Below, one piece after another: positions 13,010 through 42,259 of a stretch of DNA of 42,259 nt (positions within the stretch are counted from its first letter, which is position 1; every line of letters starts with the position of its first letter). Position numbers and translations under genes: made by a program. The DNA is from a virus. The stretch lies in the IMG/VR virus record IMGVR_UViG_3300007048_000001, one strand, 5' to 3'. Under the pieces are notes generated by a model. It searched no databases. It was not told where the DNA came from and saw only the letters and a list, made by a program, of their open reading frames with translations.

Positions 13010-13017
13010 GGCAGCAC

Positions 13018-13050
13018 AAAGCCCCCAAGGGCTGGGGTCATGGGGGCTTT
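13018..13050 (-). terminator. Hairpin likely terminating the - strand two-gene cassette
   Basis: AAAGCCCCC (13018-13026) pairs with GGGGGCTTT (13042-13050). On the - strand the stem is followed by TTTGTG. It lies 100 nt beyond the stop of 13151..13747. Confidence 0.45.
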
Positions 13051-13150
13051 GGCGGCCGGTTCCGTTCAGGTGAGCACTTGAACGAGCCCTAGTGGCCCAG
13101 CCATCCCGGGTTGAGCCATTGAGAGAATGGTAACACGCGTTGTGCTGAAG

Positions 13151-13747
13151 TCAAAGTGGAGTGTCAGGGGGTTTGCCCTTCATGCGCCTCTCGACTTCTG
13201 CCCATAAGCGTCTAAGGACACTGTGAGCTTGCGCTTCTAGGTCGATCACGTACCGCCTTAGCCCCGGGTTTGTCGTGGTGTCTCTTTGTATGTCTTTAAG
13301 GAGTTTGTCATTTGCCCCGATCTGCCATTTTATATCTTTTATGTCCCATCGCTCTAGTGGCGTTTCCATCAGCCTGTTCCAGTTATCTTTACTCCTCTTG
13401 ACTAGTTCTTCTAAGGCAAAAGCTGGTGGTTTGTTGGCTCTATTTATTTCCTTCTCACTTCGACCCCTGAACTCATTGTCGAGTTCTTTGAGTCGCCTCC
13501 TCAAGGTCCTCGCCATTTTATTCTTGTCTTTTGGTAGGCCTAGATGTTTTTTGATCAAGCGTTGCCACAAGTTCCCACCTTGACGCATGTCAGTGAGGAT
13601 CCTGCCGATAAAGTCTCGTTCCTTGATGATCTGCCGCACACTGTATCGAACCAGTGGGAGGCCATACCGGAACACGGGGAGTGCCGCTAGTGTCGTGCCC
13701 GACGTGGGCGCTTTTACGGATGGTGCTTGAATGTTGAGCCCGTTCAT
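13151..13747 (-). CDS. Hypothetical protein, cassette member B (paralog of 13752..14591)
   Basis: 198 aa, Lys/Arg/Glu-rich and helical. The N-terminus is MNGLNIQAP. The C-terminal region (PLERW...LRRLWAEVERR) parallels the upstream protein (PLSQW...LKDLWDELNRR). The DNA is AT-richer. Confidence 0.7.
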   Translation of the reverse strand: MNGLNIQAPSVKAPTSGTTLAALPVFRYGLPLVRYSVRQIIKERDFIGRILTDMRQGGNLWQRLIKKHLGLPKDKNKMARTLRRRLKELDNEFRGRSEKEINRANKPPAFALEELVKRSKDNWNRLMETPLERWDIKDIKWQIGANDKLLKDIQRDTTTNPGLRRYVIDLEAQAHSVLRRLWAEVERRMKGKPPDTPL

Positions 13748-13751
13748 CGCG

Positions 13752-14591
13752 TTAAGGTCGGCGGCGATTTAGTTCGTCCCACAAGTCTTTGAGTTGGATT
13801 GCCATGTTTATGGCCTCGGCAACAAACCCAAAGATTCCCCGTTCTTGCAGCCATCTTCGCAGTCTCTCGAGCTCGTTGATTCGCATCTCGATAAAAAGAG
13901 TGGGCCATTGGCTTAGTGGTTTGGCTAAGAGGCTTTTCCGAAAGTTGTCGGTGTCAAGAGCCTCCTCTCTTGGTGTCTTGGGGTCTGGCATCTCATCAAT
14001 CCAAGAGGGGTCCCCATGCCGAGGGGGCCATTCGCTTCGATCTTCACTCGGCTTCTGCCTCCACTTTTTCGTATTTATCATTCCTTGTGTGTTCCGTTTG
14101 CGGATCTCGGTGTTTACGGCGTCTAGATACTGAATGAGTTGTTCGAACTGACTGGTCTGTCGGTTGTTAAGGTTGGGGGTATTATCTAGTATCCTAATTA
14201 TGTGTGTCACCCTTGAGGCTTCTTGAGCTAGCTCGCGGTCGCTATACCGCGTAAGTGCTTTAAATCCACGTTGCGGCTTGCCTGTCTCTAGAGGTGGCGT
14301 GAGAGGCGGAAGTTGAAAATCAGGGTTCCCTTTCCTCAGATCTGGATCTGAGGGCAAGTGCTGGATGGGGTCTCCCTTCCTGTCATACGGGTCGACGGGC
14401 ATATGATCTGGGAACTCCCCGGGGAACCTTGCCCCTGGTGGCCGTGGTGGGCCTTTACCGCTTGAGCCACCGCCTCCAGTGCGGGGGATTCGGGGGGTCT
14501 TTGCCAGCTCTATCTTTGCTGGCACAGTTTGCATTGGTATGTTCAGACTGCTTTTGTTGTCCTCTGGTGCCGTGATGTTTAGAGTCCTCAT
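13752..14591 (-). CDS. Hypothetical protein, cassette member A
   Basis: 279 aa. The N-terminus is MRTLNITAP, followed by a Gly/Pro-rich disordered stretch and a helical C-terminal half. The ATG lies 12 nt from the divergent exonuclease ATG (14604). Confidence 0.7.
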   Translation of the reverse strand: MRTLNITAPEDNKSSLNIPMQTVPAKIELAKTPRIPRTGGGGSSGKGPPRPPGARFPGEFPDHMPVDPYDRKGDPIQHLPSDPDLRKGNPDFQLPPLTPPLETGKPQRGFKALTRYSDRELAQEASRVTHIIRILDNTPNLNNRQTSQFEQLIQYLDAVNTEIRKRNTQGMINTKKWRQKPSEDRSEWPPRHGDPSWIDEMPDPKTPREEALDTDNFRKSLLAKPLSQWPTLFIEMRINELERLRRWLQERGIFGFVAEAINMAIQLKDLWDELNRRRP

Positions 14592-14603
14592 TCGTTGTCT
14601 TCC

Positions 14604-15356
14604 ATGAAAGCTCTCGTTGATGCTGAGATCTACCTACACCGGGCGCTCACGGCCAGTGAAGTTGAGGTTGAGTGGGCACCTGAGCAGTGGACTTATGTGT
14701 GCCAGCATGACGATGCCAAGGCATTGTTCCAGGATTCGATCATAGGGATCCTAGAAGCGCTGCCTAAACACGAGATCGTCTTGGTCTTGAGTGACCACGT
14801 CAGCTTCCGCTACGGCGTCTGGCCGGGGTACAAGGCAGGCCGCAAGCGTTGCCGCAAGCCGCCTGGCTACAGCAGAATGCTTGAGTGGATGAGGAGGGTC
14901 GCGCCTGGCAGGGGCTGGGGTGTCCGTCGCTTACCGGAAGTCGAGGGCGACGACGTTCTCGGCATCCTTTACGAGGAGGGGGATGTGATCGTCAGCTCTG
15001 ATAAGGATGCGCTCACACTGCCTGGGATTCACTTGCGGGATGGCAAGACCATTGAGGTGAATCGCATGGAGGCCGACCGTGCCTTCTATGGCCAGACCTT
15101 GAGTGGGGACAAGAGCGACAATTACCCCGGCTGCCCTGGCATCGGGGCTGTGTCTGCAGCGCGCTTGCTTCGTGGGTGCACGACAGAGCTCGAGATGTGG
15201 CAGCAGACCCTCAAAGCCTTTGAGGACAAGGGTCATACCAAGGGCTATGCCAACCAGCAGGCGCGTTGTGCCCGTATCCTCCGAGCCGGTGAGTACGACA
15301 TGGACACCGGTATCCCTGTATTGTGGTCACCGCCGGTGGGGCAGGACCGTGTTTGA
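14604..15356 (+). CDS. 5'-3' exonuclease / flap endonuclease (T7 gp6-like, FEN family); alternative TTG start at 14595
   Basis: PIN-like N-terminus with FRYGVWPGYKAGRK and EVEGDDVLG. H3TH motif GDKSDNYPGCPGIGAVSAARLL. Confidence 0.85.
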   Translation: MKALVDAEIYLHRALTASEVEVEWAPEQWTYVCQHDDAKALFQDSIIGILEALPKHEIVLVLSDHVSFRYGVWPGYKAGRKRCRKPPGYSRMLEWMRRVAPGRGWGVRRLPEVEGDDVLGILYEEGDVIVSSDKDALTLPGIHLRDGKTIEVNRMEADRAFYGQTLSGDKSDNYPGCPGIGAVSAARLLRGCTTELEMWQQTLKAFEDKGHTKGYANQQARCARILRAGEYDMDTGIPVLWSPPVGQDRV

Positions 15357-15952: not shown

Positions 15953-16363
15953 ATGTGCTTCGGAAGCAGGTCCAGATCCCCACGCATCATTTATCAAGGC
16001 CCCAGCCGATCTGATGTTGAGGCCAGTCGAGAGGCGCTCGAACGTTATCGACAACAATCAATGCAACAGAATCAGCTGCTCGCCGAATCAATTCGGCAGC
16101 AGATACAGGCGGCTAATGAGCGGGCAGAAGATTTTCTCTCCCGATTAGAGGAGCAACGCGCGCAAGCTGCTGCCGCCCCGTCAGGACCTGAGGTCGACTA
16201 TGATAGTTATATTGTCACGACTAGCGATGCGGAGCCGGTTGACCCATTGGTGACCGAATTGGCCGGACTGGAAGAATCAAGCTGGGAGCGTAAACCAACT
16301 CTGCGAATTGGGCCGGGCGGGGCTGCCGTCAAACAGGGGTCGGGTTTAAACATTGGAGTTTGA
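15953..16363 (+). CDS. gp6.7-like virion protein candidate, paralog 2
   Basis: 136 aa. N-terminal MCFGSRSRS, C-terminal LRIGPGGAAVKQGSGLNIGV. Confidence 0.45.
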   Translation: MCFGSRSRSPRIIYQGPSRSDVEASREALERYRQQSMQQNQLLAESIRQQIQAANERAEDFLSRLEEQRAQAAAAPSGPEVDYDSYIVTTSDAEPVDPLVTELAGLEESSWERKPTLRIGPGGAAVKQGSGLNIGV

Positions 16364-16365
16364 TT

Positions 16366-18135
16366 ATGGGTTTTGGTAAATCAGCGAACTTAGCGAACTT
16401 CGCGAAAAATCTTCAGATAATTTCTAAGGCGTCTAAATCATCGAACTTCGCGAAAAATCTCGAGACGATTTCTAAGGCGTCTAAATCATCGAACTTCGCG
16501 AAAAATCTCGAGACGACTTCTAAGGCGTCGCCGAACGTCGCGAAAAATCTCGAGACGATTTCTAAGGCTCCTAAGCTGTCGCCTACAGCTAAAGCAAATC
16601 TTCAGACGATTGCTAAGGCGTCGCCGAACGTCGCGAAAAATCTTCAGATACTTGCTAAGGCGTCGCCTACAGCTAAAGCAAAGCTTCAGACGATTGCTAA
16701 GCTGTCGCCTACAGCTAAAACAAATCTTCAGACGATTGCTAAGGCGTCGCCGAACGTCGCGAAAAATCTCGAGACGATTTCTAAGGCTCCTAAGGTGTCG
16801 CCGAACGTCGCGAAAAATCTCGAGATGATTTCTAAGGCGCCGCCTATAGCTAAAGCAAATCTTCAGACGATTGCTAAGCTGTCGCCTACAGCTAAAGCAA
16901 ATCTTCAGACGATTGCTAAGGCGTCGCCTTCAGCTAAAACAAAGCTTTCTTTCGCGATAGCTCAAGAAAGGGCCCAGCGGACAGCCCGTGAGGTGGCCAA
17001 TACAGAGGCTGGGCGCGCGCTCGCGGCAGCCAAAAAGAGAGTGCAAGACCTCGAGAAGTATCGACAGAGTGTAACCCAACAGATTGCCGAAAAGAAACGG
17101 CAGGCTGGCAGGACAACGCCGGTGGTACGACGAAATCCAATTAGCGGGGTGTGGCATGCAACCGGGAGGAATCCAAGTAACCGATACCGAAACGAGGTGC
17201 AGGAACTTAACAAGGTTGAGGATGCTCTTTTCAAAGCTCAAAGAGAACAAATCAAGGCGCAAACAGCGCTAACAAGAGAATCGGCGAGGATAAAACTCGA
17301 GCAGGGCAGGAAAGAGAGCTCGCTACTCCTTAGTGAGAGGACACAGCTGGAAAAGGACCGCAGGGAGGCTGCTGTTGCACCACGCCGTACCGCAGAGGAG
17401 AATCGTCTCTTAGGACTAAGGGAAAAGCTTGAGAATGATCGCAGTCCCCTTGCGAGGGCGGGGCTCACGCAAAAGACCCCCGTCAATATCAACAAAGTGG
17501 TTCAAGTTGGCGGGGGTGTCCCCGCCCCGGGGTTGATTCTCAGTGAAAAAGAAAGACAAGCGGTGACCAAGGGGAGAGATAAACTAGCTGAAAAGATAAA
17601 TGAAATAAATCCTGCCTTTACCAAGCTACTTGACATCAATGCCGCCATAAAGCAGCCGATCCCCGTGGCCCGACCTCCTGTCCCACCCTTGCCTGCTTCA
17701 GTCCCTGTAGCCGATGATAATAGTCCGCCCCCCACCTCGGCTAGGCGAGCCCCGGATAATGTCTTTGCCGCTATAGACAGGCAAGATGAAATCTATGAAA
17801 TAGATATAGAACGAGAGGCAGAGCTCAAGAGACAAGAGGAAGAGCGGCAGCGCTTGCTTGACGAGCAGCGAAAGGCGCTTGAAGAACAGCGGAGACGAGA
17901 GGAGGAACTTCGAGACCGCTTGCAACCTGCACCTGCACCTGCACCTGCACCTGGTGGGGGCAGCAGAAACCTAAGTGTTTTGGGTGGCATTGGTGGCCAA
18001 GGGTCTAGGCCCCCTCGGGCTCAATTGACAGGGTTTGGCGTGCCCAGCCGGAACAGGAGGCGCACCTCTCGCCAGAGCCTACGTATAGGATCGACTGGCA
18101 CAAGCCCTGGCACAGGGCTGAACATTAGCGTCTGA
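16366..18135 (+). CDS. Large gp6.7-like repeat protein, paralog 3 (ATG 16366; track start TTG 16360)
   Basis: N-terminal MGFGKS, 12-13 tandem 14-17-aa repeats, a long charged coiled region, a PAPAPAPA stretch and C-terminal LRIGSTGTSPGTGLNISV. Confidence 0.75.
   Translation: MGFGKSANLANFAKNLQIISKASKSSNFAKNLETISKASKSSNFAKNLETTSKASPNVAKNLETISKAPKLSPTAKANLQTIAKASPNVAKNLQILAKASPTAKAKLQTIAKLSPTAKTNLQTIAKASPNVAKNLETISKAPKVSPNVAKNLEMISKAPPIAKANLQTIAKLSPTAKANLQTIAKASPSAKTKLSFAIAQERAQRTAREVANTEAGRALAAAKKRVQDLEKYRQSVTQQIAEKKRQAGRTTPVVRRNPISGVWHATGRNPSNRYRNEVQELNKVEDALFKAQREQIKAQTALTRESARIKLEQGRKESSLLLSERTQLEKDRREAAVAPRRTAEENRLLGLREKLENDRSPLARAGLTQKTPVNINKVVQVGGGVPAPGLILSEKERQAVTKGRDKLAEKINEINPAFTKLLDINAAIKQPIPVARPPVPPLPASVPVADDNSPPPTSARRAPDNVFAAIDRQDEIYEIDIEREAELKRQEEERQRLLDEQRKALEEQRRREEELRDRLQPAPAPAPAPGGGSRNLSVLGGIGGQGSRPPRAQLTGFGVPSRNRRRTSRQSLRIGSTGTSPGTGLNISV
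16396..16929 (+). repeat. In-frame tandem repeat array, 12 units of 42-51 bp in two sequence classes
   Basis: Unit lengths are 48, 48, 42, 51, 42, 42, 42, 42, 51, 42, 42, 42, totalling 534 bp. Class A is AAC(T/G)TCGCGAAAAATCT(C/T)(G/C)AGA... (N[FV]AKNLE/QxISKA). Class B is ACAGCTAAAGCAAATCTTCAGACGATTGCTAAG (TAKANLQTIAK). A degenerate 13th unit follows. Confidence 0.95.
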
Positions 18136-32200: not shown

Positions 32201-34476
32201 GACCAATCGTAGAAAGGACCAATGATGCGATCGATGCGGCCCGAGAGCAGATCGACACGCTTAACAAGCGCCTTGATTTCATCAAGCTTCAAAGGGACAT
32301 GGGGGAGATCACCCCCGAGGAAGCGCAGGCGCAGATACGAAGGATCACGCAGAGAGTAGACACAACCCAGATCTGGATCGAGAGGAGGCAAGATCTCGGC
32401 TACAAACAACAGGGGGCAGTGACACGAGAACTGCAAGCAGAGCTAGCTGAGGTGGTCAGGGCTCAGACCGGCCGATCTCTTGATGACGCCAGTCGTGAGC
32501 AGATCTTTGATGCCCAAGCGGCACTGCTCGAGAGCAAGGGGTATGACCTGACGCCCCCAACCCGTGATGCGGCCTTGAAGTTCTTCGATGGCCGGACGTT
32601 GCAAGAGACGCTCATGCAGCGACGGCGTGATCGTGATGCCCTGCGGCTTGCACAGCAAGATGTCGAGGCGTTGCCCATCAAGCTGGCTAATGTTGCTGCT
32701 CGTCTAGAAGCAGGTGAGATCAAGCCGAGTACCGCCAAGGGGCAGACAACCAAGCTGAACAAGGAACTGGCAGCTGCTGAGCAGCGGTTAGCAGAACTGC
32801 AAGACGAGCTGGCAGATAAGGGAACATGGCGGGATGAACTAATCAATGCGCTTATTACGTATGCCGAGGAAGGTGGCCAGTTCGCGAGAGAGCGCGCGCG
32901 GGTAGGGATCGACGAACAGTTCCTTGGTGCCTTGGATTTCTTTGACGAGAGCACCTTGCAACAGACGGCGGCGCAGAGGCGGCGTGATCTTGATGCGCTA
33001 CGAAAAGTGGAGGCGCGCACCGCCGCCCAGCTAGAGGCAGGGGAAATCACAGCAGAGGAGGCCGTTGCCCTAACGGATGAGGCGCGGCGCGCATTCGACA
33101 GCGAGCGTGATACCTGGCAAACAAAGATGCTTGATGCAGTGCTGACGTATGCCGAGAACACAGGCACCCAGCTCAAGCGAGTCATCGAGCAAGGTGAACT
33201 GAGATACACGCGCGAGGTGCCCGGGTTTGAAGGCACCGACCTGGCCCGGGCCCGAGCCCCTGTCGACCTAGAGGCTCAGTTGGCGGGCAGCCCTGTTGAG
33301 TTGCCCGAAGGGTTGACCCGTCAACGTCGGGAGGAGATCAAGGCGGAAATCCTGAGGCGCGCCATCACCAATGGGGAAGTCCAAACATGGAAGACCGCAA
33401 TTCCAGAGCGCCAACCCACCCCCCGTTTCTTTGAACAAGGCAGCTTCATTGATGCCCTCCTTAGTGACACGACAGGGCGAGCGGCGCAAGGCTTCAGTGA
33501 CTACAACCCAAACTGGAGGTTCTGGGGGCAGCCTGATCTGAGCTTCCGCAATGAGCTCGCCATCGCTGATGAGTTCCGTCTGCGGATGGAATACAACCTG
33601 CGTGATGCACAGATGCAACAGGCACAGAAGCGTGCCTGGATGACCGCGCATCGCTGGGAGGAATTGAGCTGGGAAGAGCAGAAAGCGATGGGCTTGATGG
33701 GGCGTGGGTCCTTTGCGATGAAGAGCAGTGACCTTGTCGAGCCTTCCCTCGTTGTCGAACCATCGCGCCCCTCCTTTATTGACCCGCGCTTCACCCAAGG
33801 TGGGCGCGAGGCGATCTATGACCCCCAGATCAACTGGGCTAGTGACCTGCCTCAAACCAGCGCTGAGCTCGACCCGATGCGTGGGGCCTACAGAAACCCC
33901 CCCGGGACTAGTGCTGGTGATACCCCATTATTCCAGCCAGGGCTGCAACCAAGACCAGAGAGCGCCCCTGATCGTGGGCGCTATCGCAACCCGCTTGGGC
34001 CAGTAGCTGATGACCCATCGGCATTCAATCCAGAGCTAGAGCCTCGCCCTGCACGTGACCCCAGCATGGGCTTCTATGACAGCGCCTCGGTGCAGGCCCA
34101 CATGGAACCCAATGTGGGGGGTGGACAAAGGCTAACCAAAGAGATGGTCAGCGTTGAGGGGGAAATGCAGGTGCACGATGTGACGGCCAAGACAGTGGAG
34201 GTTGTCGAGGAGGGGCCCCCTTCTGCTGCTGGGATTCCCCAACAGCAAGTCCACGAAGCGCCCCCACGCAAGCGCCGTGCACAGAGGAGGAGAAAAGGGC
34301 TAAGCAAACAGAAGCCCTTGCCTGCTGCGCCTGAACAACCCCCAGCGGGGACCGGCCAAGCTGAGGAGGTCAAGCGTGTCGCTGATGAAGCGGAAGCCAA
34401 GATCACTGCCGAGGAGGCAGAGTTGCTCAGAGAACAAGAGAACATCCGTAGAGAACTTGGGGAGGATCCCTGCTAA
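29287..34476 (+). CDS. Giant internal (ejection) protein candidate, 1729 aa
   Basis: An uninterrupted ORF in the core-protein slot. It has a Pro-rich N-terminus, a second Pro-rich low-complexity block (about 30480-30960), long coiled regions with internal repeats, and a basic C-terminus. Confidence 0.8.
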   Translation: MPTRFLITPLAPYDAADPTFTQPVLPTPAPTAPPTPQGPAEPERQPRQQQPPSPAADVPETPRPAPEAPALKQDATPTTPTRTRRQRLVEEEAGIAKPFHQLKHVLDSPDILPFALASPFNAISKFTNALGDVIQGKPVDTSDAWIIPDETIRRLSPARHLHDEWEVTPADEAAADLGNVIGAEATGFLTGAGILHWVRRLSMAKHVANAVRGTKAARRLARAHRTNTGVRQLLGAGRATGQVTGGTALATLFMDYERESGNLSNFLELGPRFVGEKFLGGSFSDFRLPLRIDETDNYLEKFGKSFIAEGIAAPLAAMGLGALVPPLRRAMFDGGVTWLDDLAAIEPEPYRYRGTDSDDPWIDRGVFNFGEGPPPQWWSRTVAGAIGDVASPFVGRGAGIPPPDTALGGVPAPARAAAREGIGGGLGRGFSPSPSSNLMRRDPRAWDPTGGQGPPPVWTAIGDPTEGLPLRPELQLPDPWTTPPISQTVVVAPRRQLQAGGPRLLPPPQRQIQGSSLAGALPPVPPDPWETPRLSGADQPAQLSPWPGGMPQLPSWEAKADPSRAMQYGSAIERALSENLQFRQIGSQRRRLEDMGIVDVTYNQAGQREIQWAIEPTISAEFQQLSMERGRLLAQLPSAEIERLSRQREDLLAQIPGTDKANARQIQEEINQIDLRLEELSIETDSNLVLQQLDSIDQRLRNLPEISERFVERPPTERPRYEPGGDLYQPGGPLTTIDPRPEIDTYLAALDELSDAQLREVYSRVSRELWEEAKVNELQAAQDRVNDLTQRLADLEARQQAGELTPSGAKGQLTRVQNELADAKQQLNLAQMSMAQPEGRVGDQLDLMVWQQSDLSLEPTVAVVFQPPTPREFLSWNTPEGYRGALERMDRDAVRRLAMPEVNPEVAAMVRARTGKRAWASKKADIIDVLVEYSERRNMYYPIVRDRVNRRLSDKEQVILRSLGDELQLRNRPIVERTNDAIDAAREQIDTLNKRLDFIKLQRDMGEITPEEAQAQIRRITQRVDTTQIWIERRQDLGYKQQGAVTRELQAELAEVVRAQTGRSLDDASREQIFDAQAALLESKGYDLTPPTRDAALKFFDGRTLQETLMQRRRDRDALRLAQQDVEALPIKLANVAARLEAGEIKPSTAKGQTTKLNKELAAAEQRLAELQDELADKGTWRDELINALITYAEEGGQFARERARVGIDEQFLGALDFFDESTLQQTAAQRRRDLDALRKVEARTAAQLEAGEITAEEAVALTDEARRAFDSERDTWQTKMLDAVLTYAENTGTQLKRVIEQGELRYTREVPGFEGTDLARARAPVDLEAQLAGSPVELPEGLTRQRREEIKAEILRRAITNGEVQTWKTAIPERQPTPRFFEQGSFIDALLSDTTGRAAQGFSDYNPNWRFWGQPDLSFRNELAIADEFRLRMEYNLRDAQMQQAQKRAWMTAHRWEELSWEEQKAMGLMGRGSFAMKSSDLVEPSLVVEPSRPSFIDPRFTQGGREAIYDPQINWASDLPQTSAELDPMRGAYRNPPGTSAGDTPLFQPGLQPRPESAPDRGRYRNPLGPVADDPSAFNPELEPRPARDPSMGFYDSASVQAHMEPNVGGGQRLTKEMVSVEGEMQVHDVTAKTVEVVEEGPPSAAGIPQQQVHEAPPRKRRAQRRRKGLSKQKPLPAAPEQPPAGTGQAEEVKRVADEAEAKITAEEAELLREQENIRRELGEDPC

Positions 34477-37400
34477 TGGCTGAGTGCGACCCGCTGAACC
34501 AAAGACTCGAGGAGATCCAAGCCCGGCTTAAGGACTTGGCCGCGGCTAGGGCAGCAGCTCAGTCAATGCGGGAGATGGCTGATGTACCAAACGTCGGCAA
34601 GAACATCGCCATCTTGAAAGATTATCTAGGGCAAGAGATCGGGGTATCGCTTGAAGCTTGGATCAAACAAGGCGAGAGCGACATGCGCGCAATGGGTGAT
34701 CGAGCGATTCAAGACTTGGTCTCGCAGGGCATCGCCGGTAGGGAAGGGCCACGCGGCAGCAGCGGCAGGATGACAAACTTTAATCAGTACATGGTGGACT
34801 TCAAGCAATACCCAAGAAAGCTAGATAATGTCTTGGCCTTGTTAGAGGTGATTGGTCTGCAGAGAGTCGAGACAGAACAAGGGATAAGACTCAAGAGAAG
34901 CTTCACGAGAACCGCTGCAGCACAAGCAGTCAAGCGTCTTTATAGGGAGAAAGGCGGCGATCCAGAAAGCATCTTCCAGTATCTAACGACCAAGGCCAGA
35001 CGAGGTGGGATCGCTGATTTAGCAGAGACGACAGCACTCGTGGCGAAGGCACGATGGGATTCAATCAGTCAGTTCGCAGATGTTGTCGACCAGATCGCGA
35101 GTGCCATGGTCGATGGGGCATACACTGACGAGCTGAAGATGTATCTGGGCAATGCTACGCAGTGGGCGCATCTGTTTGAGCACCTTGATGCCTTCTACCG
35201 TAGGAAGGTAGGCCAAGCGCTGCATAGTCTCCAGTTTAGATTCGACGATGACTTCACGCTGGTCGATCTTGATGAAGGGCTAGTACGAGAGCTCACAATG
35301 GAGGACATCAAGGGTGAGACCCTCCTAGGCCAGGTCTTGAAACACATCGAGCAAGGCGATACGCAAAAGCTTCGGCAGATGGCAGCCACTGTCCGCACCA
35401 ATGGGCTGACACGGACGCAGCTCAACACGCCTAGGTTCTTGTCGCAGCTTCATCTGCTCAACAACTTTAGACGGAACAATATGCTAACATCCCTGTCGTC
35501 TTGGGCGGTGCGTAACCCTGTCGGCGGGGCTTTGGTCAGTATGTATTACGGCATGGAGGATGTGATCGAGGGATCGCTTCGTGTTGGTGTAGCCGAAGAG
35601 ATGAAAGCTATAGCTCACGCTAACCGATTCCTTGTTGATGCCATGCAGATGGCAGCAAAGAATGCATTCACGTTTCTTGGGACTGGCCGAGCAGTGATGG
35701 GTCCCGGTGCATTCAAACTAGATGTGTCCCCCGAGATTTTAGGGGATGAGAAGCGAGCTGTCTACGACGCACTTGCGGCAAGCTTGACGGTATTCCGTGA
35801 TCCTCTTTATCACCTGAAAGTGCCTGTTGCATCAACAGCAGTCACCACGATGAACCTGCTGAACGCAGCGTTCAGCATTGTGTTCGGTCGTATTGGAGAG
35901 AAGTTTGGTTGGGATGGTGGCTACCTCCCATCGTTCAGGTTGCTCGGTGCTGGGGATGAAGGCATCCGTTCGATGGCCTATGCCTTGAAGGTAAATCATG
36001 AGGCCTACCTTCAAGCGCGCAAAGAGCTCGGCCCCAAGGCCAGCTCTGAGGCGGTGGCGGCAGCAGCAGAAGAGAAGGCCAAGCGCTCACTCTTCAGTGG
36101 GCAGATGAGCGATGAAGACCTGGTGAACTTCCGTCGGAAGGCCGGCATCCCCATCGGTGAGGGCATGTCGAATGATGAACTGCGCCTTCAGATCAACAAC
36201 AACCTAGCTGGCATGCCTGACACCACCACCGAGCTCGGGGCAATGGGTGTCAAGCGTGGACAGGAGGTCACCTTCACCACGACCAACACAAACCCCATCA
36301 TGCAGGGGCTAGGCCTGACGCGGCAGAACGCGCTGGTGGCATGGCAGCTGCCGTTCTTCAAGACCCCACTCAACGCCTTGCTGTGGAGTCTGAATCGAAC
36401 AGCGCTGCCCTCAGTGTTCAAGGTGATGAACCTACCTTCCAATGCGACGAAGGAGGAGATCGCCCAAGCACAGGCTCAGCTCATCCTTTCGGGGGTGATC
36501 ATGGCGCTGGGTGGTGCGGCCATCCAGTCGGGTGCCTTTGTTGGTGGGGGGCCGTCCGATCGTGAGGACTACAAGCGCTGGCGCCGGGCGGGCAACATCC
36601 CCTATAGCTTCCGGATTAACGGCCGGACAATCCCTGCCTCGCGCATCCTCTCCTCATGGGGAGGGATCGACCCGGTTGATCTGCTTGGCATTCAGGCTGA
36701 TGTGTGGGAGTTAGCGATCAAAGATGGGATCGGTGAGGGTGACTACGCACAGTTCTCCTATGGGCTGCTCACTGCAGGGGCACGGATGCTCAATAACAAG
36801 GCCAGTCTGCTGAGCACCGCCACGGTGCTGAACGCATTGACGCAACCCGATCGGGTGGACATCGCTCAGGTCTTGGCCTCTTCAATGGGAGGACTCGGGC
36901 CATTGTCTGGGCTATCAGGCAACATCGACCGCGCAATGCGGGGACCGAGGGAACCGACCGACAACAGGCGATTCATCACCGCAGCGGAGAAGCAAGCACT
37001 CAAGGATGCAGACCCTGCCTACCAGCCCCTGGCCCCGATCTTGGAGTTCTTGCAAGATGTGGGGGAACGCGTCGCCAAGCCATACGTCGGCTTGAACCAA
37101 GTCTTAAAAGCACCGGTGCGTAGGGACTGGCTCGGGACTGAGATCAAGCGCCCTGCCGGCATCCCCTTCGATGCGGTCATCCCCTTCGCGCCGGTCATCA
37201 TGCCGAAGGACCCGTTGTATCAGTGGTTGTTTGATGCAGGAGTGACGACCAAACCAAAACCCAACAACCGAATCACGATTGGGCGCACCCCAAAGAGCGC
37301 CACTCTGACGATGACCAACGAGGAGGAGGCAATTTATCGCGAGGCGATGCGCACCTATGTAGGGGAGGTGCCCGCGACTGCCTTCATGCATAGAAAACCG

Positions 37401-37760
37401 AGCAGTTTCTACATGGACATCGATCGGTATGTCCAAGGCAACACGTTGCGGGAAGCGTTGCGTGCCCTCAAGAACGACCCGATCTACCAAGCCGTCGTGG
37501 CCATCTCCGAGAATGACAGCCCTGACCAGAGAGTGAACCCAGCGCCCTTTGCTGATCGGCGGGACACCAGCCTCTACAGCCCAATCCAAGACATCATCGA
37601 CTACTACGACGTGGCCGGCCGGCTTGCGCTTGCTGCCGGGGAAGGCGAGATCTCAGATGGTTTCAGGACGCGTTACCAAGCGATGATCAAGGCGAACGAG
37701 GCGACACTGCAGGACAAGATCGACCGGTACGAGGAACTGGAGTTGGAACGGCGCCCCTGA
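34476..37760 (+). CDS. Large internal core protein candidate, 1094 aa
   Basis: An uninterrupted ORF whose start overlaps the upstream stop (TAATG). It is the last gene before the tail fibre region, in the gp16-like position. Confidence 0.75.
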   Translation: MAECDPLNQRLEEIQARLKDLAAARAAAQSMREMADVPNVGKNIAILKDYLGQEIGVSLEAWIKQGESDMRAMGDRAIQDLVSQGIAGREGPRGSSGRMTNFNQYMVDFKQYPRKLDNVLALLEVIGLQRVETEQGIRLKRSFTRTAAAQAVKRLYREKGGDPESIFQYLTTKARRGGIADLAETTALVAKARWDSISQFADVVDQIASAMVDGAYTDELKMYLGNATQWAHLFEHLDAFYRRKVGQALHSLQFRFDDDFTLVDLDEGLVRELTMEDIKGETLLGQVLKHIEQGDTQKLRQMAATVRTNGLTRTQLNTPRFLSQLHLLNNFRRNNMLTSLSSWAVRNPVGGALVSMYYGMEDVIEGSLRVGVAEEMKAIAHANRFLVDAMQMAAKNAFTFLGTGRAVMGPGAFKLDVSPEILGDEKRAVYDALAASLTVFRDPLYHLKVPVASTAVTTMNLLNAAFSIVFGRIGEKFGWDGGYLPSFRLLGAGDEGIRSMAYALKVNHEAYLQARKELGPKASSEAVAAAAEEKAKRSLFSGQMSDEDLVNFRRKAGIPIGEGMSNDELRLQINNNLAGMPDTTTELGAMGVKRGQEVTFTTTNTNPIMQGLGLTRQNALVAWQLPFFKTPLNALLWSLNRTALPSVFKVMNLPSNATKEEIAQAQAQLILSGVIMALGGAAIQSGAFVGGGPSDREDYKRWRRAGNIPYSFRINGRTIPASRILSSWGGIDPVDLLGIQADVWELAIKDGIGEGDYAQFSYGLLTAGARMLNNKASLLSTATVLNALTQPDRVDIAQVLASSMGGLGPLSGLSGNIDRAMRGPREPTDNRRFITAAEKQALKDADPAYQPLAPILEFLQDVGERVAKPYVGLNQVLKAPVRRDWLGTEIKRPAGIPFDAVIPFAPVIMPKDPLYQWLFDAGVTTKPKPNNRITIGRTPKSATLTMTNEEEAIYREAMRTYVGEVPATAFMHRKPSSFYMDIDRYVQGNTLREALRALKNDPIYQAVVAISENDSPDQRVNPAPFADRRDTSLYSPIQDIIDYYDVAGRLALAAGEGEISDGFRTRYQAMIKANEATLQDKIDRYEELELERRP

Positions 37761-37763
37761 CCC

Positions 37764-37792
37764 TTGACACTCACTCTGACGCGCGCCATACT
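37764..37792 (+). promoter_or_regulatory. Strong sigma70-type promoter for the recombinase gene
   Basis: -35 TTGACA (37764-37769), exactly 17-nt spacer, -10 CATACT (37787-37792). GAGGAG lies upstream of ATG 37816. Confidence 0.6.
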
Positions 37793-37815
37793 GTGTGCAG
37801 AGAGGAGAGCCAGCC

Positions 37816-38388
37816 ATGACACGCTCAATCGGTTACGCCAGAGTCTCCACCGTCCACCAAGACAGGGCCGGCCAAGTCGCGGCGCTCAAAGCCGCCGGAT
37901 GCTCAAAGGTCTTTGATGAAACGATCTCCAGCTGCATCTCTGATAGCGACCGCCCAGAACTGCAAAGAGCCCTCAAAGAACTCAGGGCTGGCGATGAACT
38001 GGTGCTGGCCAAGCTCGATCGCCTAGGCCGCACGCAAGTGGAAGTGATCAACCGCCTGCATGACCTGCAATCCAACGGCATCGACGTCCGCACCCTCGAT
38101 GGCCTGATCAACACGCGTGCACTTGGCAAGATGGCCCCGCTCATGATCGGCATGCTGACGGGTCTGGCGGAAATCGAACGTGAACTCACCCGTGAACGCA
38201 CGCTTGAGTCCATTGCGCACCGCAGAGCGACAGGAGGCGACTTGGGTGGACGCCGCAAGAGCTACACCCCAGAACAAGAAACCATGGTGATGCGACTGCA
38301 CAAAGCAGGTCAATCTTTGCGCATGATAGCAAGGGAAGTGGGTCTGAGCCACAGCGTTGTCTCGCGACTCGTCCATAGCCATGGCTAA
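37816..38388 (+). CDS. Small serine recombinase, resolvase/invertase family (Hin/Gin/Cin-like architecture)
   Basis: 190 aa from ATG 37816. N-terminal SIGYARVSTVHQD carries the catalytic Ser. Other family motifs are DELVLAKLDRLGRT, GLAEIERELTRERT and GGRRKSYTPEQ. The C-terminal HTH reads GQSLRMIAREVGLSHSVVSRLV. It aligns colinearly with Hin from memory. Confidence 0.9.
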   Translation: MTRSIGYARVSTVHQDRAGQVAALKAAGCSKVFDETISSCISDSDRPELQRALKELRAGDELVLAKLDRLGRTQVEVINRLHDLQSNGIDVRTLDGLINTRALGKMAPLMIGMLTGLAEIERELTRERTLESIAHRRATGGDLGGRRKSYTPEQETMVMRLHKAGQSLRMIAREVGLSHSVVSRLVHSHG

Positions 38389-38409
38389 GCTGCCCCCAGC
38401 GGACCGGCC

Positions 38410-38432
38410 GGGCCCTTCGGGGCCCTTTTTAT
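38410..38432 (+). terminator. Rho-independent terminator after the recombinase gene
   Basis: GGGCCC-TTCG-GGGCCC (6-bp GC stem with a UUCG tetraloop) followed by TTTTTAT. Confidence 0.7.
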
Positions 38433-38469
38433 TGGCTCAGCTAAGCTGGACTGGTGTGCCTGAGGCCTC

Positions 38470-39249
38470 ATGGCAACCAGAACGCCACTTGCCTACAACC
38501 AGTACGTCGGCACGACGACTGCTAGGTCCAGCTTCCCAGTGACGTTCCCGTACTTATGGCGTGCTCACGTCAAGGTCTACACCGGCTATGACCTGGTCAA
38601 GAGGACAGGGACCGAGCTGACTGAAGGGACTGACTACACATGGGCTGACAACACAACCATCCAAACAACAGATGACCTAGTACTTGGCACCACGTTAACG
38701 ATCGTTCGCGAGACCCCAGATAATGCACCCTTGGTTGCTTGGCAAGATGGGTCAAATCTTTTGGCGGTTGACTTGAACACGAGTGTTCAGCAGAACTTGT
38801 ATGTCTTCCAAGAAGAAAGAGATGCGAATGTCGCTGCGGTCGACAAGCTAGCTGCCACAGCAACAACAGCGAAAAACGCAGCGGCCGAATCAATGGCGGC
38901 ATCCGCCAGATCAGCAGAGGCAGCAGCAGAGGCAGCAACGGCCACGGCAGCAGCAGAAACCGCAGCGGATAAGGCCAATGATGCTGTGGCTGTGGCAAGA
39001 CAAGAAGCGGGCCAGGTCGCTGCGACAGCAGCGAATGCACTAGCAGTGGCTACTGCAGCGGTCGCCCCCATCTCGCTGTTGCAGGTGCTTGAACCGATGG
39101 CGATTCTTTCTAACCGCTTTGATGGCATCGGCAGCCCGGGTGAGATGCCCTTTGGCGTGGGCCCGGTCGCGCCATCTGGGGTCACGTTTTCAGGTATCAG
39201 CCAGCGGGACTATTATCCTATGCATCTGAAGTCAGGGAGTTTCTGCTGA
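38470..39249 (+). CDS. Tail fibre protein with T7 gp17-like N-terminal tail-attachment domain
   Basis: 259 aa. The N-terminus YNQYVGTTTARSSFPVTFPYLWRAHVKVYTGYD...LTEGTDYTW fits the T7 tail fibre N-terminal domain pattern. An Ala-rich coiled segment follows, then a C-terminal module GIGSPGEMPFGVGP...DYYPMHLKSGSFC. Confidence 0.85.
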   Translation: MATRTPLAYNQYVGTTTARSSFPVTFPYLWRAHVKVYTGYDLVKRTGTELTEGTDYTWADNTTIQTTDDLVLGTTLTIVRETPDNAPLVAWQDGSNLLAVDLNTSVQQNLYVFQEERDANVAAVDKLAATATTAKNAAAESMAASARSAEAAAEAATATAAAETAADKANDAVAVARQEAGQVAATAANALAVATAAVAPISLLQVLEPMAILSNRFDGIGSPGEMPFGVGPVAPSGVTFSGISQRDYYPMHLKSGSFC

Positions 39250-39455
39250 TGGGCCAATTCGGCTCAATCATCCCGGGGCTAGCTATCCCTGAGCATGATC
39301 ATGTAACCTTGGACCCTCCCACGCTACCCACGACAATCACTTACCGTGCGGGTGGTGCGATGGGAGACATCGTGGCAGTGCTGACCTTGACTTACGTCGC
39401 CTTCGACTTAGAGACCATCTCGATCTTTAGAGGAGACCCCACGGCACAACCATGA
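39249..39455 (+). CDS. Small protein following fibre 1 (assembly factor or adaptor candidate)
   Basis: 68-aa ORF, translationally coupled at both ends (TGATG and ATGA overlaps). Confidence 0.5.
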   Translation: MGQFGSIIPGLAIPEHDHVTLDPPTLPTTITYRAGGAMGDIVAVLTLTYVAFDLETISIFRGDPTAQP

Positions 39456-39823
39456 CGACCTACACCTACGACCCGACCAGCGGGGGCCTCATCCCCCAAG
39501 CACAGCGCACGATTGAGGTCACCATCAATGGGATTGACGTCAATGCTGTCGTCGGTGCACAAGGCCCGAAAGGGGATGATGGTGCGAAGGGGGACAAAGG
39601 AGACGCCGGTGCGACCGGTGCGCAAGGCCCACCTGGTTCGACTGGTTCACGTTGGCTTGATGAAGAAGAGGCGATTGTTCGTAATGGTGCTCTTTCCATC
39701 GGGCAGCAAGGAACCATCCCCTTCGGGGTTGGCCCCCATGGGTTAACTGGGGTTGTGTCCTTCCGATCAGTCGGTGTTGACAGGTATTATCCAAAGCATG
39801 TTGGTTCTGCAAGCTTTATGTGA
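39452..39823 (+). CDS. Short collagen-like fibre protein carrying the same C-terminal module as fibre 1
   Basis: 123 aa. It has Gly-X-Y repeats (GAQGPKGDDGAKGDKGDAGATGAQGPPGSTG) and a C-terminal SIGQQGTIPFGVGP...DRYYPKHVGSASFM. Confidence 0.75.
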   Translation: MTTYTYDPTSGGLIPQAQRTIEVTINGIDVNAVVGAQGPKGDDGAKGDKGDAGATGAQGPPGSTGSRWLDEEEAIVRNGALSIGQQGTIPFGVGPHGLTGVVSFRSVGVDRYYPKHVGSASFM

Positions 39824-40104
39824 TGACTGTTTTTCGTTACTACAAAGCTGATGCCGAGCAAGTGCTAGGCCTGCACTTCCCCACTAGTCCAGGGGATGAT
39901 GAGGCGCCTCCTTTCACGTTCGTTGCATTGCATAATGACAAGGACCCCGACGCGAATGGCAGTGATGGGCTCAACTATTTTGGTGCACATGGTGATGATG
40001 GTGATGTAATCGATACTTGGGCAGCCACACAACCTCTAGTGCCAATTGACAAGAGTGAAGTCTTGGCACCGATCACCTTCCACCCGCACCCCTTCGAGTC
40101 ATGA
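39823..40104 (+). CDS. Small acidic protein following fibre 2 (assembly factor or adaptor candidate)
   Basis: 93 aa from ATG 39823 (the track starts at GTG 39820). It is coupled to both neighbours. Confidence 0.5.
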   Translation: MTVFRYYKADAEQVLGLHFPTSPGDDEAPPFTFVALHNDKDPDANGSDGLNYFGAHGDDGDVIDTWAATQPLVPIDKSEVLAPITFHPHPFES

Positions 40105-41717
40105 CATTGCTGTTGGTCAAGGAGACATTTCGTGGCCCCCGTAGTATCGGCCACATCGAGGCTGGTATCCAGAACGAGTGGTATGGCTATCGCTCTGACT
40201 GGATCTACACCATTGGGTTGGCCGGCATGTACGGCTTCGGGGTGGGGTGTTGCCCGTCTGAGCTGCTGCCTGATGGCTTTGCACCGCTTAGCCCTGGCAC
40301 GCTGGATCCAACCAGGAGGCACCCGCACTTCGGTAATTACATCCATGTGCCGAGTGCATCGATTGTGTGCTACCTGCCAAAGCACCGCATCCGGCTTAAC
40401 GGGCAGTCATCAACGCATCACCCATACCAAACCCTAAGGGTGGTCATCTCTGACAATGACACTGACCACCAACTGGCACGGATGTTCCAGGACAAGAACA
40501 AGGAACTAGCCGGGGTCTTCGTTGATAAGTATCAGATCAGCAATGGCAAGGACGATGGCTCGGGTCTACCGAACCATGCCGAGGTCACTGGTGGCCTACC
40601 AGGCCCTGCCCCGGGTGGTGAACCGCAGACGGGTGGCATCGCCGTCTCGCGTCCTTTGCACTGGCCCTGTAGCGCCAGCCTTGCTACCGCGACTAGCCAA
40701 TCTAGTCTCATTATCAACAGCACGATCGCCAATCTGACCAGCACAACCCTCAACAGCAGTAACACGTCAGCCCCATCTGCAAGCTCTGCTGGGATCTGGA
40801 CCGCATGCGCAAGTCGTGGTGATACATTCTTCCCAATCCCAACCTGGACGCGTGCGCACCTGGCTTACTTGAGCGTCGCGCATTCGCAGGCTTTACAAGA
40901 TCCATCTGTCAGTACTGGTGCGGCACTGCCTGGTGCTACAGACAAAGCGGCATGGATGGACGTTCAGCCTTACGGACCCAAGGGCAACAACAACAGTGGG
41001 TCAGATGTCAACAAGACAAGCCTGCAGTTCGCCCGTGTTGGCATTGAAGGGGCAACAACTACTGGGTTTGCTGGTACCACCTCGCGTGCCTTCACCGGTG
41101 CAGCACACATCAATGGCACCCCAGCTATTGAGCACACCACCCACAATGGGCAACTCAGTGGCATTGTCGACGTCAATGGGAATCAATGGGACTTGGCGCC
41201 TGGCCTAAGTAGCGTCTCGCCTGCAGCTCAAGCTGGCTACCGCCTCTACCCACCCACTTTGGCTTGGTCTGCTGTGAGCGCAGTGGACGACATCACTGGT
41301 GCTACTGGTGTGATCAGCCTGATAGCTAATACAGCAGACAATGGGATCTGGTGGACGAATACCGCCGCAGAATGGCGACATATCCAACCTGTCGGTAATG
41401 GGCCCTATCACCAAACCTCTAGCTTCCTTGCTCAAAGCATTACCGCTGCAGCAAGGGCATCAAGACGCGCCATGACCGATTGCCTACTGCCACGTGAAAA
41501 TGGTGCACGAGCGGACGAAGCATCAGAAGCAGTCTCTCGCAACAACTACGGAGGAGATGGATTTAGATACGTGGTCTTCGCGAATGTCATCCCAATGTAT
41601 GGTGGCAGGTGGTCCAATACCTACAGTGCCGGGGTGTTCTGCACTAATATCGCAAACACGGTCACGAGCGTCGCCAACAGTCATGGCCTGCGTTCTGTGA
41701 ACTTAGTCACGGCCTAA
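40101..41717 (+). CDS. Receptor-binding tail protein, paralog 1 (N-terminal shared module, C-terminal lectin-like domain suspected)
   Basis: 538 aa. The N-terminal TIGLAGMYGFGVGCC...GNYIHVPSASIVCYLPKH is homologous to the fibre C-terminal modules. The C-terminal half has CASRGDTFFPIPTWTRAHLAYL, VDVNGNQWDLAPG, YGGRWSNTYSAG and HGLRSV, reminiscent of C-type-lectin-fold (FGE/DUF1566-like) domains. Confidence 0.8.
   Translation: MTLLLVKETFRGPRSIGHIEAGIQNEWYGYRSDWIYTIGLAGMYGFGVGCCPSELLPDGFAPLSPGTLDPTRRHPHFGNYIHVPSASIVCYLPKHRIRLNGQSSTHHPYQTLRVVISDNDTDHQLARMFQDKNKELAGVFVDKYQISNGKDDGSGLPNHAEVTGGLPGPAPGGEPQTGGIAVSRPLHWPCSASLATATSQSSLIINSTIANLTSTTLNSSNTSAPSASSAGIWTACASRGDTFFPIPTWTRAHLAYLSVAHSQALQDPSVSTGAALPGATDKAAWMDVQPYGPKGNNNSGSDVNKTSLQFARVGIEGATTTGFAGTTSRAFTGAAHINGTPAIEHTTHNGQLSGIVDVNGNQWDLAPGLSSVSPAAQAGYRLYPPTLAWSAVSAVDDITGATGVISLIANTADNGIWWTNTAAEWRHIQPVGNGPYHQTSSFLAQSITAAARASRRAMTDCLLPRENGARADEASEAVSRNNYGGDGFRYVVFANVIPMYGGRWSNTYSAGVFCTNIANTVTSVANSHGLRSVNLVTA
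40632..40672 (+). repeat. 41-bp block 40/41 identical to 49..89 (and 42209..42249)
   Basis: See feature 49..89. The single mismatch is at 40646. Confidence 0.9.
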
Positions 41718-42259
41718 TGACCTTGCTGCTCGTTCAAGACAAGATCGTTGGGCCCGGCGGACCAGATGGTATCAAGAGCGAGTGGCGTGGATTTCGTTCC
41801 CAATGGATCTACACCATCGGCCTAGCAGGGCTCGATGGGTTTGGCTTGGGATGCTGCCCGCCTGAGTTATTGCCTGATGGGTTTGCGCCATTGAGTGCTT
41901 GGACCACAGATCCCAGTAGACGCCATCCACACTTTGGCAACTATATTCATCTGCCGAGTGCATCGATCATGTGCTATATCCCGAAGCACTATATGCGATT
42001 GAATATTCCCACTACAGGGATAAGCCTGCCCTACGCAGGCCTTCGTGTCATCATCACCCATAACAAGGGGAATGGGACAATCCCTAGGTGCATGAGGGAT
42101 AACAACAAAGATCTAGCAGGATTCTTTCTTGACAAGTATCAGATCAGTAATGGCAGGGCCGATGGTTCAGGGCGACAGAACATCGGTAGTGATGGCATCC
42201 CAGATGAAGGTGGCATCGCCGTGTCGCGTCCTTTGCACTGGCCCTGTAGTGCAAATGCC
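41717..42259 (+). CDS. Receptor-binding tail protein, paralog 2, N-terminal part (continues at base 100 through the overlap to 1131)
   Basis: ATG 41717 overlaps the TAA of paralog 1 (TAATG). MTLLLVQDKIVGPGGPDGIKSEWRGFRSQWIYTIGLAGLDGFGLGCCPPELLPDGFAPL parallels paralog 1. The frame is open to the window end and in phase with 1..1131. Confidence 0.85.
   Translation, partial: MTLLLVQDKIVGPGGPDGIKSEWRGFRSQWIYTIGLAGLDGFGLGCCPPELLPDGFAPLSAWTTDPSRRHPHFGNYIHLPSASIMCYIPKHYMRLNIPTTGISLPYAGLRVIITHNKGNGTIPRCMRDNNKDLAGFFLDKYQISNGRADGSGRQNIGSDGIPDEGGIAVSRPLHWPCSANA
42161..42259. repeat. Second copy of the 99-bp contig overlap
   Basis: Identical to bases 1-99. Confidence 0.95.

Follow-up and report, generated by a model that had tools for sequence, protein, structure and literature searches.

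The viral record IMGVR_UViG_3300007048_000001, a stretch of 42,259 nucleotides (nt) referred to below as the window, represents a T7-like freshwater cyanophage that carries a cassette of about 700 bp (37761 to 38454, + strand) between its last core virion gene and its fibre module. The cassette encodes a small serine recombinase. As judged from sequence comparisons, it appears to be a moron derived from a mobile element, rare for this type of phage and kept by selection. The recombinase is probably autoregulated and would act via a single site or in trans. A preliminary description of this DNA had proposed a host-range switch in the style of Mu and P1; for that claim, the message of our analysis is negative.

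The recombinase gene (37816 to 38388, + strand, with the ATG at 37816 and the TAA at 38386–38388) encodes 190 amino acids (aa). A Shine-Dalgarno-like GAGGAG, read from the sequence, is located on the same strand at 37802–37807, 8 nt before the ATG. The protein matched the Pfam family Resolvase (PF00239, E = 5.8e-32) over residues 5–140, which form the catalytic domain, and the helix-turn-helix (HTH) families HTH_38 and HTH_7 at residues 145–187. Over its full length it matched PHROG 125, 'DNA invertase' (1.3e-48), and the best match among solved structures was Gin (3.7e-26). It carries the motif SIGYARVSTVHQ; the codon for the catalytic serine, Ser11 in YARVST (37846 to 37848, + strand), aligns with the nucleophile serine of Gin and Tn3 resolvase. 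The features of small serine recombinases were all found, namely the nucleophile serine in YxRVS, the conserved Arg and Asp (DRLGR), the HTH and a size within approximately 180–210 aa, and all 63 columns that are invariant in an alignment of 44 homologs are kept. The enzyme had been described as a resolvase/invertase of 190 aa with a catalytic serine and a C-terminal HTH, and these matches bear that out.

The cassette is bounded on the left by the stop codon of a gene (34476 to 37760, + strand) whose product is a 1094-aa internal-virion-type protein, an ortholog of p047 of the Synechococcus phage S-SRP02; the right edge is approximate. Downstream follows the gene of a fibre adaptor with the N-terminal domain of the T7 tail fibre (38470 to 39249, + strand; Pfam Phage_T7_tail, 4e-22), the first gene of the fibre module. 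S-SRP02, a freshwater member of the Autographiviridae, matches the window gene by gene with 35–78% amino-acid identity and conserved order. The first and last 99 bases of the window are identical (1–99 and 42161–42259), which indicates a circular assembly of a 42,160-bp genome, and two independent Logan assemblies of the phage are colinear with it at 100% and 99.98% identity.

S-SRP02 and 13 relatives from IMG/VR lack the cassette, and their fibre adaptor follows 35–50 nt after the ortholog of the 1094-aa gene. Homology of the window with cassette-free relatives restarts about 15 nt before the fibre ATG. A search with the fibre-adaptor protein yielded four further contigs. Three of them (L181, L182 and L183) are without the cassette; their fibre modules are 82–91% identical in DNA to that of the window, and their fibre gene lies 27 nt after a homolog of a different core gene. 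The fibre module thus appears, by sequence, to be swapped as a unit among relatives. The core gene that precedes it in these three contigs codes for a 925–999-aa homolog of the window's 980-aa protein (35–37% identical). The fourth contig, the phage contig L184, carries the cassette at exactly the same place and is 92.8% identical to positions 36271–39532 of the window (3.27 kb). Identity between the two amounts to 0.967 for the 1094-aa gene, 0.964 for the leader, 0.955 for the recombinase gene and 0.957 for the surroundings of the terminator; past the terminator (approximately 38435) it falls to 0.74 over the final 35 nt ahead of the fibre gene and to 0.81 within the fibre gene. The drop just past the terminator puts the cassette, evolutionarily, on the core side of a recombination breakpoint. 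Taken together, the sequences show that the insertion is polymorphic among close relatives.

We also looked at the borders of the cassette. No terminal inverted repeats flanking it were found, and none of the open reading frames (ORFs) of the window that were scanned encodes a transposase. A target-site duplication or terminal repeat was considered and rejected, the similarity of the two leaders being reached in 390 of 500 shuffles. The left leader has a borderline similarity to the intergenic region of the relatives (28 of 500 shuffles). With its own terminator and its own putative promoter, and placed between genes that are adjacent in related phages, the cassette matches phage morons in architecture and in comparative signature. 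Descriptions of morons mostly concern temperate phages, and recombinases are rarely among their products; unlike those, the present one resides in a phage of T7-like lineage in which no integrase was found.

Within the recombinase gene, 26 substitutions separate the window from L184, of which 23 are synonymous and three are not (V91A, H135Y and R137K). This corresponds to 0.18 synonymous (dS) and 0.007 non-synonymous (dN) substitutions per site and to a dN/dS ratio (omega) of 0.039 (binomial P = 1.5e-11). The three amino-acid changes leave the catalytic motifs untouched, and the catalytic domain, which makes up three quarters of the protein, is under the same constraint as the HTH. The neighbouring essential 1094-aa gene gave a dS of 0.14 and an omega of 0.026; the similar dS of both genes fits with co-inheritance, cassette and flank having diverged together. 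The 55-nt leader contains two differences where 7–10 would be expected at the synonymous rate (P = 0.001–0.014), and leader and terminator region together contain four in 101 nt where 14–18 would be expected (P at most 0.001). As far as one pair of sequences can tell, gene, leader and terminator are shown to be under purifying selection in this phage lineage, and the low omega together with the conserved leader and terminator argues for a functional cassette rather than a decaying passenger. A sporadic insertion with a degenerate catalytic domain had been named as an outcome that would speak against an active switch. The first half of this holds, since the cassette is present in L184 and absent from S-SRP02, the 13 IMG/VR relatives and L181–L183; the second does not, since the invariant residues are kept and the gene is under purifying selection.

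The label 'Hin/Gin-type' given to the enzyme could not be upheld. The recombinase is 36.6% identical to Gin, 35.5% to Cin, and 33% to Tn3 resolvase and to ORF14 of phiRSM3. In a neighbour-joining tree with Tn3 resolvase set as outgroup, the enzymes of the window and L184 are sister to P0002 and P0004 within an aquatic clade, and Gin, Cin and phiRSM3 ORF14 are placed outside this clade. For enzymes of GenBank phages, identity does not exceed about 43% of the aligned part, and for those of plasmids 45%. Among the matches listed for 307 GenBank phage records there was no cyanophage or T7-like name, in agreement with the earlier remark that no such enzyme was known from T7-like podoviruses. Many of the listed matches are from Ralstonia, in records of 8–13 kb (one of 31 kb), two of them named as filamentous phages of the phiRSM type. 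No close relative was among the matches listed for viral contigs of IMG/VR; the best of these, obtained with protein and family-alignment queries, are enzymes of other phages with about 42% identity. A large protein collection contains thousands of relatives, the nearest of which (62–74% identical) come from metagenomes and a Synechococcus genome. Members of the clade included in the tree are 54–71% identical to the window enzyme and those of the clade overall 47–74%: about 71% for the closest metagenome copies, 63% for P0116 of Synechococcus and 55–57% for the marine island copies analysed. A scan of a genome collection returned only two Prochlorococcus single-cell genomes, which carry copies of 57–60% identity.

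To describe the surroundings of these genes we surveyed 74 metagenome loci plus Synechococcus and Prochlorococcus contigs, reading the context where the contigs of the relatives were long enough. In L025, the recombinase has a helicase and a tyrosine integrase nearby, with a tRNA-Ser at the flank; a tRNA-Ser is found in L160 and L170 and a tRNA-Phe in L162. L010 has a D5-type primase and a helicase-methyltransferase, and L003–L005 a terminase and ParA. This is the architecture described for tycheposons, and a 'small serine recombinase' is listed as one of the genes of their modules (Hackl et al., bioRxiv 10.1101/2020.12.28.424599). Defence islands are reported to be accompanied by small serine recombinases in general, whose own role is described as unresolved (Andersen et al., PLoS Biol 2026, PMC13552941). 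From protein similarity and context, the phage recombinase belongs to an uncharacterised clade that occurs in such islands, and also in phage- and plasmid-like elements, from aquatic bacteria, the picocyanobacteria among them.

For the characterization of putative binding sites of this clade, the upstream 175 nt of each recombinase gene were compared (L107–L180, L003, L010, L011, L025 and L188). Nearly all of the 74 metagenome homologs have a structured region there. It resembles a res site and consists of a 26-bp crossover-type dyad approximately 85–150 nt upstream and of half-sites round the promoter of the gene. In the subclade nearest to the window the dyad has a 12-2-12 layout with a mostly AA centre, as in GCTCCGATTGCG-AA-CGATTGTGGAGC, and begins 128–147 nt before the start codon; two direct outer half-sites of 5 bp, 13 nt apart, precede the −10 element, and an inverted copy follows it. 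The half-site changes together with the recognition helix of the HTH: helix GLSLATVQRIL is paired with half-site GTATC, GLSKSVV(A/G)RL with GTCCC, GLSQGTIDRIL with GCTCC, GLSATVVARIC with CGTTC and GLALSTIRRII with GTTCC. Because of this covariation we read the repeats as predicted binding sites. The case rests on the covariation pattern, the mean count of the most frequent 5-mer being only modestly higher upstream than in controls (4.1 vs 3.7). Counts of 5-N16-5 dyads upstream and inside genes were uninformative, because homologous genes share chance dyads. To our knowledge, such covariation has not been described before in this recombinase clade; spread over dozens of natural variants, it offers a table of specificities, ready for use, for a recombinase group that has not been studied.

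A second copy of the upstream dyad was not found within about 5 kb in any of the 38 loci of at least 4 kb. With a single dyad per locus, the clade looks like a single-site system of the res or att type and not like one for local inversion. A res site adjacent to the gene had been mentioned beforehand as a finding that would point away from a switch, and the relatives do carry one res-like site each, in mobile elements.

Some further observations were made on these loci. In L011 (1–1020) and L188 (1800–2700) the recombinase gene and its upstream region have a G+C content of about 0.62 and are embedded in DNA of lower G+C content; the flanks of L011 average 0.45, and downstream in L188 the value falls to 0.42–0.47. 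This suggests that the module of site and gene in the closest loci is itself mobile, as a small island of its own. L025, a tycheposon-like island of Prochlorococcus, contains a 46-nt direct repeat (6651–6696 and 7797–7842, 93% identical) that includes the dyad TTGGACAGA-N14-TCTGTCCAA. Between its copies, immediately after the recombinase gene, are two small ORFs that may form an excisable mini-cassette. The 16-bp palindrome TGGCAGTTAACTGCCA occurs six times (for example at 1747–1762) in L003, a 10-kb phage- or plasmid-like contig that carries a 73%-identical recombinase and the terminase; its sister contigs carry ParA.

In the phage itself the leader comprises the 55 nt between the upstream stop codon and the recombinase ATG. 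This gap is so short that the crossover-type dyad of the clade must be missing from the phage copy. The leader contains a sigma-70-type promoter-like site, TTGACA-17-CATACT (37764 to 37792, + strand), both hexamers of which are identical in L184. In the whole genome, four sites match at 10 or more of the 12 positions, compared with 2.7 in simulated sequence; the site at 37764–37792 is the only one of the four on the + strand and is located in non-coding sequence between the genes, 24 nt upstream of the ATG. The phage leader and L011, the locus of the closest homolog, have the −10 segment ATACTGTG in common. Overlapping the −10 element we found the dyad CACTCTG-N19-CAGAGAG (37772 to 37804), the only CTCTG..CAGAG dyad, whose arms are conserved at 7 of 7 positions in L184. 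Its position corresponds to that of the promoter-flanking half-sites in the relatives. A 30-bp imperfect palindrome (37768–37797) overlaps this dyad; 22 of its 30 positions are self-complementary, compared with 18.6 (maximum 21) for the genome-wide best in simulated sequence. Palindrome, dyad and whole leader have no second copy in the genome and, L184 excepted, are absent from the 1.5 Mb of fetched loci. The leader dyad or palindrome is thus the only candidate for a binding or crossover site of the recombinase, and it is single-copy.

Downstream of the gene is the intrinsic terminator GGGCCC-TTCG-GGGCCC-TTTTT (38410 to 38430, + strand), the only sequence in the 42 kb to pass a strict scan, with 0.25 expected. 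It is kept in L184, where a single change in the stem still pairs as G-U. The call is based on this hairpin-plus-T-run scan and not on folding of the whole region, which, taken as the 81 nt downstream of the gene, was no more stable than shuffled sequences (z = −0.37). The 9-bp direct repeat GCTAAGCTG (38384–38392 and 38440–38448, + strand) brackets the terminator hairpin, with both copies present in L184. A promoter-like site and a terminator of the gene's own, as reported before, are both present in the sequence.

We compared the 90 nt upstream of the phage gene with the res regions of the relatives. The best case, a double GGAAC motif shared with L011, was reached in 11 of 200 shuffles before correction for multiple testing; as one of its two copies is not conserved in L184, it was dropped. 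The most frequent 5-mer upstream of the window gene has three copies compared with four to six in close relatives.

From these data we propose the following course of events. The gene would have been captured from the mobile-island gene pool of the picocyanobacteria and inserted, as a cassette of about 700 bp consisting of promoter, gene and terminator, between the last core virion gene and the fibre module. The phage copy would have kept the gene, the host-type promoter with one overlapping dyad and the terminator, and lost the upstream crossover dyad. Host RNA polymerase would transcribe the recombinase independently of the phage programme, and the recombinase, by binding to the dyad that overlaps the promoter, might repress its own synthesis as resolvases do at res. 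Strand exchange would then be single-site, taking place between the leader site on two DNA molecules or genome copies. Alternatively, the enzyme might exchange cognate sites on DNA outside the phage, for example in resident islands. Autoregulation and single-site exchange are proposed because of the build of the res-like regions in the family and what is established for resolvases. A crossover site in the leader is plausible because those of Mu and phiRSM3 are no more than about 70 nt ahead of the recombinase gene: the boundary of the G segment (gix) is 67 nt upstream of gin, and the annotated attP of phiRSM3 is 52–64 nt upstream of its recombinase gene.

Three variants of this proposal can be considered. 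We tentatively give preference to action in trans on host-resident elements, or integration into them. Recombination between copies of the phage genome, either in the processing of concatemers and multimers or in exchange with a co-infecting phage, is possible though somewhat doubtful, and the same applies to a selfish maintenance or mobility of the cassette itself. A more far-reaching idea is that a nominally lytic T7-like cyanophage maintains a tycheposon-type recombinase and one cognate site, right where its host-range module begins, and uses them for homology-independent, site-specific exchange with islands or co-infecting phages. We do not expect it to hold, but if true, it would mean integration, hitch-hiking or a counter-attack on tycheposon or satellite islands, or the swapping of whole fibre modules, and thus a new route of phage–island or phage–phage recombination in picocyanobacteria.

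Several points weigh against the proposal of an autoregulated, single-site or trans-acting enzyme. The promoter match alone is not significant. The two overlapping symmetries of the leader cannot both be the real site, and part of the right arm of the dyad (GTGCAGAG) resembles a conserved intergenic hairpin of cassette-free relatives (P approximately 0.06), so that this arm may have been inherited from the phage ancestor and not be an operator. None of the 120 closest proteins shares the recognition helix SHSVVSR, which makes the half-site unpredictable from the relatives. Island relatives pair the recombinase with a tyrosine integrase, and its role there is uncertain too. Purifying selection was seen in the single pair of window and L184, and the mechanistic part is what we infer.

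Among other explanations, we considered that the enzyme is a phage integrase of the phiRSM type that replaced the tyrosine integrase of S-SRP02-like phages, with the leader site as attP. Homologs of the integrase, MarR and KilA-N genes of S-SRP02 are lacking in the window, as is any Pfam integrase match; the candidate site is single-copy, the phiRSM3 attP likewise precedes the gene of a small serine recombinase (33% identical), and genes that are expressed outside the lytic programme typically have a promoter of the host type and a terminator. We nevertheless regard this function as unlikely. Rfam and tRNA scans of the window gave no hit, and neither a tRNA-like nor a recognisable attB-type sequence is present in it. 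No repressor module was recognised, the sole hint being an ORF with an Xis-like HTH (10967–11185). The island relatives have a tyrosine integrase of their own, the cassette is absent from most phage relatives, whose integrases vary independently of it, and no prophage copy was among the loci fetched.

It is improbable, in our view, that the cassette is a recent passenger without a role in the phage, acquired from an island or satellite by illegitimate recombination and heading to decay. Its distribution is sporadic, its protein cluster comprises only two sequences in a collection of approximately 15 billion proteins, the family's upstream crossover dyad is lacking, and the insertion point is a boundary between modules, a place that tolerates foreign DNA. 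On the other hand, an omega of 0.04 over a dS of 0.18, the same as for the neighbouring essential gene, the conservation of promoter, leader and terminator and the retention of every family-invariant residue do not fit with a decaying gene. A role as DNA-binding regulator only, the protein being kept for an HTH that represses a host, island or phage promoter and catalysis being irrelevant, seems very unlikely to us. Proteins of the resolvase family repress their own promoters, and the leader dyad does overlap the −10 element; however, the three amino-acid changes spare the catalytic motifs and the catalytic domain is as constrained as the HTH.

An invertase of the Gin/Cin type that switches host range by inverting the fibre cluster or another segment, such as the minus-strand arm of the genome, is hardly tenable. 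It is true that Gin is the best structural match, that the PHROG family is named DNA invertase and that the dyads of the relatives, with 26 bp and a mostly AA centre, resemble hix and gix. The gene is also located directly upstream of a duplicated fibre cluster, as stated before: downstream of the fibre adaptor are two paralogs of 538 aa (40101–41717) and 524 aa (from 41717 over the ends of the assembly to 1131), whose identity is 60% for DNA and 56% for protein. However, the fibre genes all point the same way, and the enzyme, with about 36% identity to Gin and Cin, belongs to a separate clade. Scans for site pairs of the hix/gix type and of the family type found none anywhere in the genome, in line with the earlier failure to find hix/gix-like sites. 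A repeat search of the whole genome gave no meaningful inverted pair above chance and none with features like those of the family. A scan of the genome for 5-N14..20-5 dyads with every half-site of the relatives gave nothing above shuffled sequence. With a weight matrix built from the 26-bp sites of nine relatives, the top score in the window was 9.6, compared with top scores of 8.0 (mean) and 14.4 (maximum) in shuffled sequence and 12–17 for real sites. The leader site is single-copy, and the relatives carry one site, not two. In S-SRP02, a phage without the cassette, the unusual minus-strand arm (large terminase and C39-peptidase/endolysin-like gene) is oriented as in the window; the identical layout indicates a trait of the lineage and not an inversion by the recombinase. 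The three assemblies of the phage, window included, are all colinear. Furthermore, invertases of the Gin/Cin type need Fis and an enhancer, and we know of no Fis in cyanobacteria. In sum, the cassette probably does not invert or delete fibre genes, and the genome gives no sign that it does.

Scarcely conceivable, finally, is a switch by deletion or fusion between the paralogous fibre genes through a 44-nt block (40632–40675 and 49–92) serving as direct repeats, within the region 40632–40678 that had been suggested as a site: the block, although it is 95% identical against 60% overall and contains a short dyad, encodes a conserved peptide, is, with a block value of 0.88, closely followed by other blocks with up to 0.82 nucleotide identity and similar third-position identity, has an 8-8-8 geometry in one copy and an imperfect one in the other, unlike the 26-bp family sites, shares nothing with the leader dyad, and no deleted form occurs in the three assemblies. 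We therefore rejected it as a site; it is the best-conserved block of two diverged paralogs.

We compared the cassette with known systems. Like the enzymes Gin of Mu, Cin of P1, Hin and Pin, the recombinase has about 190 aa, an N-terminal serine catalytic domain and a C-terminal HTH, and its relatives have 26-bp dyads of the 12-2-12 layout with mostly AA at the centre. Gin and Cin are also phage-borne and adjacent to tail-fibre genes. Unlike in those systems, neither an inverted pair of sites nor an invertible segment was found in this phage, nor any oppositely oriented alternative fibre C-termini, and the relatives of the enzyme are single-site. In the P1 annotation, the recombinational enhancer, which is bound by Fis in the Hin/Gin/Cin class, is inside the 5′ part of cin.

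The resolvases of Tn3 and gamma-delta with their res sites, as well as systems of the Sin and ParA-MRS type, share with the clade one multi-part region per element that overlaps the promoter. By analogy, this one-per-element region would predict that the enzyme regulates its own expression and recombines copies located on separate molecules or in multimers. The phage enzyme differs from Tn3 resolvase in being 33% identical and in the lack of a transposase or transposon ends among what was found, and from Tn3-type res in that the phage copy is without the upstream crossover dyad and most accessory half-sites. The small serine recombinases of tycheposons from Prochlorococcus and Synechococcus belong to the same protein clade; unlike these, the phage gene is alone in a T7-like virion genome, has a different recognition helix and a truncated site region. 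ORF14 of phiRSM, which integrates filamentous phages of Ralstonia, is a phage-borne small serine recombinase with a single site as well, but the identity is 33%, the type of virus is different, and no attB-like sequence (the 3′ end of a tRNA) was recognised in the window. The small serine recombinases linked to defence islands (PMC13552941) also travel on mobile islands, with cargo; in the phage cassette the terminator follows directly after the gene, and co-transcribed cargo is not apparent. If the enzyme is active, the cassette would link lytic T7-like cyanophages with the tycheposon- and satellite-type islands that shape picocyanobacterial genomes, two gene pools that are as a rule dealt with apart, and would place a function for site-specific recombination beside the most exchangeable module of the phage.

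A few features elsewhere in the genome may be mentioned. The minus-strand arm (1506–5635) comprises the large terminase, the C39-peptidase/endolysin-like gene and four small ORFs, and a small ORF for a DNA-packaging protein (2225–2491, + strand) sits among these genes. About 1.1 kb of non-coding DNA (5640–6700) separates the divergent arms. It contains a 26-nt inverted repeat with 85% complementarity and a spacing of 70 nt (5921–5946 and 6017–6042), 13 consecutive A at about 6308–6320, an AT-rich stretch and, at about 6548–6600, a long perfect hairpin (AGAGAGAGAGACAGCC...GGCTGTCTCTCTCT); these repeats and the hairpin may mark the genome ends, an origin or early promoters.

The region 10407–14591 has no counterpart in S-SRP02 and may represent a second foreign module. 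Here the ORF at 10967–11185 (72 aa, HTH_17/MerR-type and excisionase-like) abuts a 421-aa ORFan (11185–12450), considered when another integrase was sought, with only four homologs in the large protein collection, whose AlphaFold model was too poor for a structure search (predicted local distance difference test, pLDDT, of 54.6). Two minus-strand ORFs (13151–13747 and 13752–14591) are without any family match. Directly thereafter (14595–15356), a 253-aa ortholog of the 'DNA polymerase I' gene of S-SRP02 matches 5′–3′ exonuclease domains only. Tandem repeats of 42/48 nt, in at least seven copies with 66–97% identity (16387–16970), fall inside a 591-aa ORF (16360–18135) that has a weak match to tail-fibre PHROGs.

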